DNA from: an uncultured Aquimarina sp.
GTDB lineage: Bacteria; Bacteroidota; Bacteroidia; Flavobacteriales; Flavobacteriaceae
Direction of reading: 5' to 3'
Assembly: GCA_947496705.1 (NCBI GenBank)
Contig: CANMDW010000003.1
Span: 217,622 to 281,621, forward strand
Length of the DNA stretch: 64,000 nt
Of the stretch, positions 15,273-15,610 are shown piece by piece. The notes under the pieces are model-generated. The model had not been told where the DNA came from and made no database searches. It saw only the letters and a program-made list of their open reading frames with translations. Position numbers and translations under genes: made by a program. Each line of letters opens with the position of its first letter. Positions within the stretch are counted from its first letter, which is position 1.

Positions 15273-15610
15273 CTCCCTGCAATCTATTTATCATTGCCCG
15301 ATCTTTATAATATCCCTCCCCGTCCTACAAAGCAGCTCCCCCGCAGTACTTTTATCGACCATCGGCACTTACATTGCTCTCCCCGTCCTACAAATACCCT
15401 CCCTCGTCCTACAATTTAGTCTCCCCGAAGTGCTTTTATCGATCCCCGGTATAGTATATCCTTTCCCCGCATCTTTTTTATCGACCATCGGCACTTACAT
15501 TGCTCTCCACGTCCTACAAACATCCTTCCCCGTCCTACAATTTGGTCTCCCCGCAGTGCTTTTATCGATCCCCGGTATAGAATATCCTTTCCTCCGCATC
15601 TTTTTTATCA
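15273..15610. repeat. Array of about 16 degenerate 21-bp units with a higher-order 126-bp duplication
   Basis: The G of a CCCCG-like core falls at 15322, 15343, 15364, ... 15574 (13 units exactly 21 bp apart) plus 15279, 15300 and 15596; tcgaccatcggcacttacattgctctcc recurs at 15355 and 15481. Confidence 0.85.

Follow-up and report, generated by a model that had tools for sequence, protein, structure and literature searches.

The window analyzed here, a stretch of 64,000 nucleotides from the genome of an uncultured Aquimarina species (G000; 6.8 Mb, 36% GC), is chromosomal, lies within a 692-kb contig, and carries a minus-strand operon for a contractile injection system (eCIS). The operon begins with a PAS-GerE regulator and Pvc16, at about 50 kb, and ends with an AAA ATPase (6914-8227). 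Just beyond this ATPase, a TIR-domain protein of 328 aa (5522-6508) is encoded beside an asparaginase gene. A tandem array occupies part of an 880-bp gap between two minus-strand genes, which encode proteins of 162 and 275 aa (Table 1). No Pfam match was found for the 162-aa gene. The earlier note on this DNA had placed the array upstream of hydrolase, haloperoxidase and parA genes, which is correct for the minus strand, but the name hydrolase is unsupported, as no family was found for the 275-aa protein in Pfam, NCBIfam, PHROGs or PADLOC.

Table 1. Features in and around the array-bearing gap (positions in the window)
Feature	Position	Strand	Remarks
PAS-LuxR (GerE) regulator gene, operon head	50334-51149	-	35 kb from the array
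eCIS effector, 1155 aa, eCIS_core domain	16507-19974	-	weak Fic match; final effector preceding the array
162-aa gene upstream of the array	15971-16459	-	putative immunity partner of the preceding effector
Leader-like motif AGACCCCTGCTATCACTAGTGGCGGTAAGAGTAAGAAG	15903-15941	-	just past the 162-aa stop codon
Two outlying degenerate core copies, CACGGGGTCA and CTGCGGGAGAG	15671-15706	-	about 22 nt apart; read directly
Main array	15273-15610	-	analyzed for period, shuffles, composition, stops and folding
200-aa open frame across the array, C-rich strand	15139-15741	+	judged spurious
AT-rich leader, array to next gene	15092-15272	-	
275-aa gene	14264-15091	-	insertion between the array and the VCPO-like gene
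DUF6851 / VCPO-like gene	12746-14161	-	ancestral downstream neighbour of the array; the same in G085 and G022
ParA-family ATPase (AAA_31/CbiA)	11689-12453	-	after the VCPO-like gene in three of six array-bearing eCIS loci

When the array is written in rows of 21, a CCCCG-like core falls in one column in about 14 units, from approximately 15314 to 15607, with weaker units from 15272. In total 15-16 units keep strictly to a 21-bp grid and form a 126-bp super-repeat (P < 0.0005 relative to shuffles), and the last unit contains a 1-bp insertion (CTTTCCTCCGC). The array is composed of two 126-bp super-repeats of six unit classes and, towards 15273, about three to four degenerate units. The six classes, read on the minus (G-rich) strand, are ACCGGGGATCGATAAAAGCAC, TGCGGGGAGACCAAATTGTAG, GACGGGGAAGGATGTTTGTAG, GACGTGGAGAGCAATGTAAGT, GCCGATGGTCGATAAAAAAGA and TGCGGGGAAAGGATATACTAT, and the unit core is CG(G/A)(G/T)G(A/G). 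TRF detected a 126-bp unit in 2.1 copies with 93% identity (15350-15609). Folding the 336 bases of 15273-15608 gave a column information of 0.503 bit per column at period 21 and 0.625 at period 42, compared with 0.14-0.18 at periods 14, 28 and 35 and at most 0.17 at any period not divisible by 7; across periods 10-44, the highest value averaged 0.10 in 2,000 shuffles and never exceeded 0.214. Thus, the array is strictly phased at two helical turns. The phasing, the super-repeat and the figure of about 16 units given in the earlier note are borne out by the row layout, TRF and shuffles, and the classes that it listed (gtcctacaa, cttttatcg and ggcacttacattg) match unit classes of the minus-strand super-repeat. 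The plus strand of the array is 36% C and 12% G (C/G = 3.1), and the G-rich strand is the coding strand of every flanking gene. By BLAST, the array sequence is single-copy in its genome.

The array is non-coding. All three sense frames across it contain stops. On the C-rich strand a 200-aa frame stays open across the entire array, but it is antisense to the whole operon and has no Pfam family match, and it was judged spurious because the strand has few stops and its period amounts to seven codons. Among the orthologous arrays of five other genomes described below, different antisense registers are open (LSTIG/PVLQ versus FIDHRH/PRPTKT), and one of them (G085) is without any open frame. With stops in the sense frames and an antisense register that is not conserved between species, a translated heptad-repeat gene, which had been raised as an alternative, is excluded for practical purposes. 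RNA folding revealed no excess of structure over shuffles on either strand of the window array (z = -0.07 for the sense strand and +1.72 for the C-rich strand), and no Rfam match was found at E ≤ 1 in 14000-17000, nor in the arrays of nine related loci. A scan of the gap for sigma-70 promoters and intrinsic terminators yielded nothing above shuffles, and inspection of the units and leader by eye gave no convincing match to the Bacteroidota -7 box TAnnTTTG.

Part of the leader-like motif in the remainder of the gap, TGCTATYACTAG, has six matches in the genome, namely four other 21-bp arrays with a CCCCCGC core (the sister arrays below), whose 5' edge it marks, the window gap, and one unrelated site. 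Another part, CTAGTGGCGGTAAGAGTAAGAA, corresponds to the 3' half of a REP-like hairpin, which relatives carry in full. This hairpin family has the form GCTACCGCTAGT-loop-ACTAGTGGCGG followed by (T/C)nnGAGTAAGAA, and the 5' arm is deleted in the window copy; other copies lie at G000:C1:899500-899950, C13:73850-73900 and C30:33110-33160 and at 1300-1345 of locus L004, and on C1 short, nearly identical ORF starts alternate with three copies. The outlying core copy CTGCGGGAGAG falls in a small palindrome, TCTCTgcgggAGAGA (15671-15690), which may be a remnant of the palindromic junction known from the gene-linked arrays. On the other side of the array, approximately 15115-15187 is a duplicate of the leader and first 14 or so codons of the VCPO-like gene (MATNDNYTPSKAHH), with a stop after 21 codons; 15143-15187 matches the true start of that gene (14117-14161) in a comparison within the genome, and the duplicate was also aligned with 14100-14330 and with locus L006. 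The duplicated start shows that the array was once directly upstream of the VCPO-like gene, as in relatives. It also marks the 275-aa gene, which was tried as a synteny anchor and is absent from 40 related genomes, as having been inserted recently between the two.

A search for similar arrays at other eCIS loci, which the earlier note had proposed, was positive. Arrays with the unit classes of the window array were observed at the matching junction in five further Aquimarina genomes (G085, G022, G004, G013 and G002), and with the window they represent two locus types. In all six loci the array lies between the last effector with its putative immunity gene and a terminal block ending in an AAA ATPase, and both neighbouring genes have the G-rich strand as their coding strand. 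The arrays of the five further genomes contain an extra unit, TTTGTAGGACGGGGAG, and always come just after an eCIS_core effector and a small partner gene; the window array is an Aquimarina sub-type, with TGCGGGGGA and TGCCGATGGTCGATAAAAG units and the added TTTGTAGGACGGGGAG unit. Apart from the 275-aa insertion, the window has the gene order of G085 and G022 (A. longa), where the array is followed by the VCPO-like gene, ParA, a small eCIS_core protein and the AAA ATPase. A vWA-containing protein of 1,055-1,070 aa comes after the array in G004, G013 and G002, along with a different block, with the ATPase last and no ParA. The flanking VCPO-like proteins are 84-86% identical, and the number of array units varies among species from 5 to 16. 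Since ParA is absent from three of the six loci and the LuxR gene is 35 kb away, the conserved feature is the junction between cargo and terminal block.

These comparisons bear on what had been proposed for the array. A cooperative protein-binding platform, as the earlier note had put it, stands insofar as the array is phased, non-coding and recurrent at eCIS loci, but neither of the partners named for it is supported: nothing ties the PAS-LuxR protein, encoded at the head of the operon, to the array, and ParA follows the array in only half of the array-bearing loci. A neutral VNTR is made unlikely by the conservation of position and unit classes across six species.

Most arrays in the genus with the unit classes of the window were found outside eCIS loci, either directly 3' of a gene for a protein that we call p233 or as orphans. 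The pattern TTATCGAYCATCGGYA matched in 40 of 91 Aquimarina genomes, typically as runs spaced 63 bp, with reversed controls near zero. A degenerate pattern, TGTAGGACNRGGRRRG, was too unspecific across the genus (controls were about as frequent as hits), and its clustered hits alone were used. At 12 of the 30 TTATCGAYCATCGGYA loci that were fetched, the array is immediately 3' of a p233 gene and on its strand, and all the Aquimarina p233 loci inspected among the TTATCGAYCATCGGYA matches have G-type units on the sense strand. The window shares its TGCCGATGGTCGATAAAAG and TGCGGGGGA units with p233-linked arrays of A. megaterium, A. atlantica, Aq78 and others. Seven orphan arrays elsewhere in the genus are of mixed orientation relative to their neighbouring genes.

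The genome of the window is itself rich in non-coding tandem arrays with periods of 20-21 and 40-42, and 21 is the commonest period reported by TRF (121 of 812 rows). Four further 21-bp arrays with a CCCCCGC core share a leader, a tail and about 0.3-0.6 kb of flanks. One of these sister arrays directly follows a p233 gene of this genome, and two of the four are without a p233 gene. The flanks of the window array have no BLAST-level homology to the four sister arrays. A single copy of TTTTATCGACCAGCGG on contig C46 was rejected as a further array. On contig C3, at least two sister arrays have fragments of group II introns (RF02003, RF00029) no more than about 130 nt from their 3' ends, and another fragment lies about 2 kb from the C30 array; the fragments account for part of the shared tail (L087 2471-2587, that is, G000:C3 approximately 39970-40086; L088 2376-2492; L089 4128-4237).

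Other array families are present in the same genome. Arrays of 21-nt units (GAACACCTGCCGGGTCGTCAA, 10-14 copies) lie at C6:206056-206357, C4:33627-33909, C25:53176-53394 and C19:54462-54733, and arrays of 20-nt units (TTCCGCAGCGGCGTCAATTG, 10-13 copies) at C3:68933-69124, C34:28403-28654, C9:16662-16878 and C27:58353-58544; both kinds are of high identity, with about four to five loci each. Seven genes of the DUF6261 family (PF19775; 229-264 aa) have a non-coding array of 40-42-nt units, four helical turns per unit, just upstream of the start, and the repeat sequence differs at each gene (examples are G000:C1:437836-438092, C4:107379-107576, C5:79565-79736, C5:110081-110442, C13:32000-32175, C20:54107-54403 and C46:10147-10302). 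DUF6261 with its upstream arrays is a second gene-array pairing in this genome. A profile comparison found no relationship between p233 and DUF6261.

The p233 protein is an all-alpha protein of 233 aa with homologs in 2,051 clusters at 50% identity (E ≤ 1e-3), and its genes in the genome of the window are at C2:37711-38412 and C1:734449-735150. The arrays downstream of p233 genes were examined at 45 loci of species representatives and six further assemblies, drawn from several Bacteroidota lineages and spirochaete MAGs. At a threshold of at least 0.25 bit per column, the best period in the 700 nt after the gene was exactly 21 in 32 of the 41 testable loci, compared with 0 of 39 upstream controls, and the same downstream pattern was observed at p233 loci of Prolixibacteraceae, Fulvivirga and Joostella. 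The arrays are on the strand of p233 and start 10-200 nt past its stop. Their 7-9-nt core differs by lineage while the period stays at 21: Aquimarina cores include GCGGGGGA, GCGCGGA, CGCGCG, CTGGGGA, CCGGGAA and GGTGAAG, and those elsewhere CTGCCGGAGGA and GCACTAAGG in Salinivirgaceae, TATCCGA in a Leptospirales MAG, AACAGGGCGG in Prolixibacteraceae and CGTGGGGAAGC in Joostella. The canonical array is two-armed, running from C-type units through a palindromic junction (a long hairpin; z = -3.8 to -6.1) and a T-run to G-type units. Many p233 loci end contigs. Apparently, the phased arrays linked to p233 are an undescribed family of repeat arrays in Bacteroidota. In A. spongiae and Aquimarina sp. 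U1-2 (L059 3700-3880, L057 and L060), a run of up to about 25 copies of the heptamer TGGTTGA follows the p233 stop, before the usual hairpin and array. Furthermore, some 0.6 kb downstream of the genome's second p233 gene, past the 42-nt-period array of that gene, there is a sub-threshold match to whalefall-1 RNA (33.7 bits, gathering score 37; L090 1327-1382, G000:C1:733826-733881).

The protein gave few clues of its own. No significant match to p233 was found in Pfam, NCBIfam, PHROGs or PADLOC, the best matches below cut-off being DUF7893 (E = 0.0045), the PheS-related SrmL (E = 0.004) and PQLLE (E = 0.04). There was no sequence match in the PDB, Foldseek gave nothing significant against the PDB and BFVD, and a nucleic-acid-binding fold is not recognisable. 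The AF2 model (pLDDT 92) is all-alpha with one helix of 50 residues, and the protein is acidic overall (pI about 5) and basic only at its C-terminal tail. By our own arithmetic, the modelled helix would measure about 75 Å against 71 Å for 21 bp of B-DNA, a closeness that is only suggestive.

By motif, the window array is shown to be a gene-less member of this 21-bp array family. It has the strict 21-nt period, a conserved core of 6-9 nt with a variable remainder, and unit motifs in common with the gene-linked arrays of Aquimarina. It does not, however, stand directly 3' of a same-strand p233 gene, and its fold shows no excess of structure; it has only G-type units on the sense strand, unlike the two-armed gene-linked arrays. 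As no p233 homolog was found within the window, its array is an orphan, like at least seven others in the genus. Within genomes, eCIS and p233-linked arrays have only slightly more k-mers in common than between genomes (a value at least as high arose in 7-13 of 120 permutations). The complete 4.4-Mb genome G002 has no p233 homolog at E ≤ 1e-5, and its eCIS array (C1:1070839-1070941), of about five units, is the shortest and most degenerate; this single case would fit decay without a partner.

Our preferred reading, which we hold tentatively and regard as quite possible, is that the window array is a DNA-level platform with many candidate docking sites for protein, serving as a boundary or regulatory element. 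The array would work as double-stranded DNA, in which one core per two helical turns on the same face of the helix could permit cooperative loading of a sequence-specific protein. The resulting nucleoprotein stretch may form a boundary for, or control, transcription entering the terminal eCIS block or starting before it. A functional cis element is favoured over neutral DNA because six species have kept the position and the unit classes and the period does not vary across phyla. The cooperative platform remains the most economical reading of the sequence, as the cores lie on one face, the orphans are of mixed orientation, RNA structure was not seen, and a terminator precedes the canonical G-type units. 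The p233 encoded at G000:C2:37711-38412 would be the first candidate binder, since its own array has the same GCGGGGGA core as the window array. The case for p233 as the partner is nevertheless weak, and this is the weakest step of the explanation: G002 has kept its array without p233, the agreement of cores within genomes is not significant, and the protein is acidic, with no recognisable binding fold. Against the platform as a whole count the lack of two arms in the window copy and the G-type units found on the sense strand in all six eCIS loci and in the Aquimarina p233 loci inspected, which leave room for an RNA role. Rather doubtful is the proposal that p233 and the two-armed 21-nt arrays represent an undescribed and widespread protein-nucleic-acid module, present in Bacteroidota and some other phyla, whose orphan arrays dock other loci under its control. 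The helical p233 would then polymerise sequence-specifically on its own array with one protomer per two helical turns, and the window array would control the switch between the toxin cargo genes and the terminal assembly block of the injection system.

The platform has to be weighed against an action of the array in RNA. Transcribed with the operon, it could provide an unstructured multi-motif RNA, with CGGGGA every 21 nt, that binds or titrates an RNA-binding protein like a CsrB/RsmZ-type sponge, or that sets the stability or translation of the flanking messages as a long UTR. The coding-strand orientation of the G-rich strand in all six eCIS loci and the position of p233-linked arrays shortly past the stop on the strand of the gene are consistent with this, as is a purine-rich sense strand with no excess of structure over shuffles, which would be expected of an RNA that binds protein in single-stranded form. 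However, the canonical hairpin and T-run between the gene and the G-type units should stop most transcription earlier, no Rfam match was found, and no known CsrA-like partner is involved. The seven orphan arrays elsewhere that are oriented both ways also fit a DNA-level role better than a strand-specific RNA role, and we consider the RNA explanation unlikely. The array could also be a selfish or neutral minisatellite of the MITE type, i.e., a leader-repeat-tail element that spreads or persists intergenically and grows by slippage or unequal exchange, with any promoter or terminator activity being incidental. The wealth of non-coding arrays and the prevalence of period 21 in this genome would be expected under such an origin, and so would the four sister arrays with their common leader and tail, two of them without p233, and the short leader motif that recurs in the window gap. 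Unit numbers that differ between species, p233 loci that end contigs, and higher-order repeats of 63 and 126 bp typical of satellite dynamics point the same way, and BrickBuilt, with 23-nt units, is a described precedent in Bacteroidota (PMC4596501). Yet position and unit classes have been kept in six species whose flanking VCPO-like proteins have diverged to 84-86% identity, the exact period is retained across phyla while the sequence changes, and one protein family is linked on a consistent side and in a consistent orientation. Moreover, neither terminal inverted repeats nor target duplications were seen, and the window array is single-copy, so that this origin appears improbable.

Two further explanations were considered. 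An operator or centromere of a protein encoded at the locus, whether the PAS-LuxR protein, a LytTR-type regulator or a partner of ParA at a partition-like site, would agree with the 21-bp centre-to-centre spacing, which fits LytTR and ARG-box operators, with the ParA that follows the array and VCPO-like gene in G000, G085 and G022, and with the PAS-GerE gene heading the operon. Such an assignment is very unlikely given the distance of the LuxR gene, the three array-bearing loci that lack ParA, the absence of a ParB-like or LytTR gene among the neighbours tested, and an array family that is found mostly outside eCIS loci, beside p233 or alone. The array may alternatively act as a protein-independent insulator, in which Rho would load onto the C-rich, G-poor antisense strand as a rut-like tract and so end antisense or convergent transcription; the two-armed canonical copies, with a C-rich tract ahead of the junction hairpin from either side, would amount to a bidirectional terminator. 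The C/G ratio, a C-rich strand that is less structured than shuffles, and the two-armed symmetry with terminator-like junctions are in line with insulation. Rho loading, however, requires neither a repeated core nor a 21-nt period, the lineage-specific cores and the link to one gene family are left unexplained, and no plus-strand gene faces the window array, which together make an insulator of this kind highly improbable.

Phased repeat arrays are a classic mark of proteins that assemble cooperatively on nucleic acid, as at origins, centromeres and enhancer-like operators. The 21-nt arrays are tied to a very large protein family without annotation, solved relative or recognisable fold, and the combination of a fixed period with sequence turnover offers a testable handle on the function of about 2,000 clusters of "hypothetical proteins." A non-coding element at the border between cargo and terminal assembly genes is a candidate control point for the timing and amount of the eCIS, and to our knowledge almost nothing is known about such control in Bacteroidota. 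The arrays also have practical consequences: they give rise to spurious ORF calls, and they break short-read assemblies, as many related loci end contigs.

Several known systems resemble these arrays in part. CRISPR arrays consist of identical repeats of 24-48 nt with unique spacers between them and are accompanied by cas genes. The window units are contiguous 21-mers in recurring classes and no cas genes were found among the neighbours, so a CRISPR array was rejected, as the earlier note had already concluded. In type III toxin-antitoxin systems (ToxIN, CptIN, TenpIN), repeats of 34-45 nt lie upstream of, and on the same strand as, the gene of a toxin with an endoribonuclease fold, with a terminator between them, and the repeat sequence co-varies with the protein. 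The p233 gene is likewise paired with same-strand short tandem repeats across a terminator, but the order is gene, hairpin and array, the units are of 21 nt and form two arms, and the protein is a helical bundle. With the array 3' of the gene and no ToxN-like or otherwise known fold in p233, a type III system was rejected. LytTR operators have 9-bp repeats with 12-bp spacers, and ARG boxes of 18 bp are 3 bp apart, so that both are spaced 21 bp centre to centre. The arrays share with them short cores at this distance on one helix face, but such operators have two to four sites rather than 15-20 and a consensus unlike CGGGGA. The window array fits the LytTR spacing, but the ORFs tested near it include no LytTR gene, and no LytTR or ArgR gene is linked.

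Our search of the literature on such arrays, on DUF6261 and on eCIS regulation by repeats found nothing relevant apart from BrickBuilt of Porphyromonas gingivalis (Klein et al. 2015, PMC4596501). BrickBuilt is an intergenic non-coding array of imperfect 23-nt tandem repeats without spacers, whose unit has a conserved and a variable half; it has leader and tail flanks, is multi-copy in the genome and varies in unit number (PMC4596501). It is one sequence family in one species, with small terminal inverted repeats and no linked protein gene reported (PMC4596501). The 21-nt arrays are also intergenic, non-coding and short-unit arrays of Bacteroidota with leader and tail sequences, several copies and a variable unit number. 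They differ in spanning phyla with lineage-specific cores, in being tied to one protein family, and in the two-armed organization of canonical copies around a hairpin. When the window was examined for features of the BrickBuilt type, the short leader motif was found in common between its gap and the four sister arrays, without inverted-repeat ends and with the array in a single copy.

Iterons and centromeres of plasmids offer the other close comparison. In the F plasmid sopC follows sopB, in P1 incA follows repA, and iterons are present in R6K, pPS10 and pSC101. Iterons are 19-22 bp long (about two helical turns) and the sopC repeat 43 bp (four turns), the gene of the cognate protein is adjacent, and the sequence changes with the lineage. 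An iteron origin from plasmid or phage was rejected for the window, which has no Rep family among the neighbours of the array. A partition centromere like parC, parS or sopC was also rejected, as ParA, which is 2.8 kb downstream in G000, G085 and G022, is absent from the other three loci, and no ParB-like gene was identified among the neighbours tested. The 21-bp arrays are chromosomal and lie in unrelated neighbourhoods, with ParA in half of the array-bearing eCIS loci, a window copy that has no partner gene, and, in place of a Rep, ParB or SopB homolog, a candidate in p233 that lacks a known DNA-binding fold. What the p233-linked arrays have in common with sopC, incA and iterons is direct repeats at two helical turns, placed beside a gene, in a sequence that varies with the lineage.
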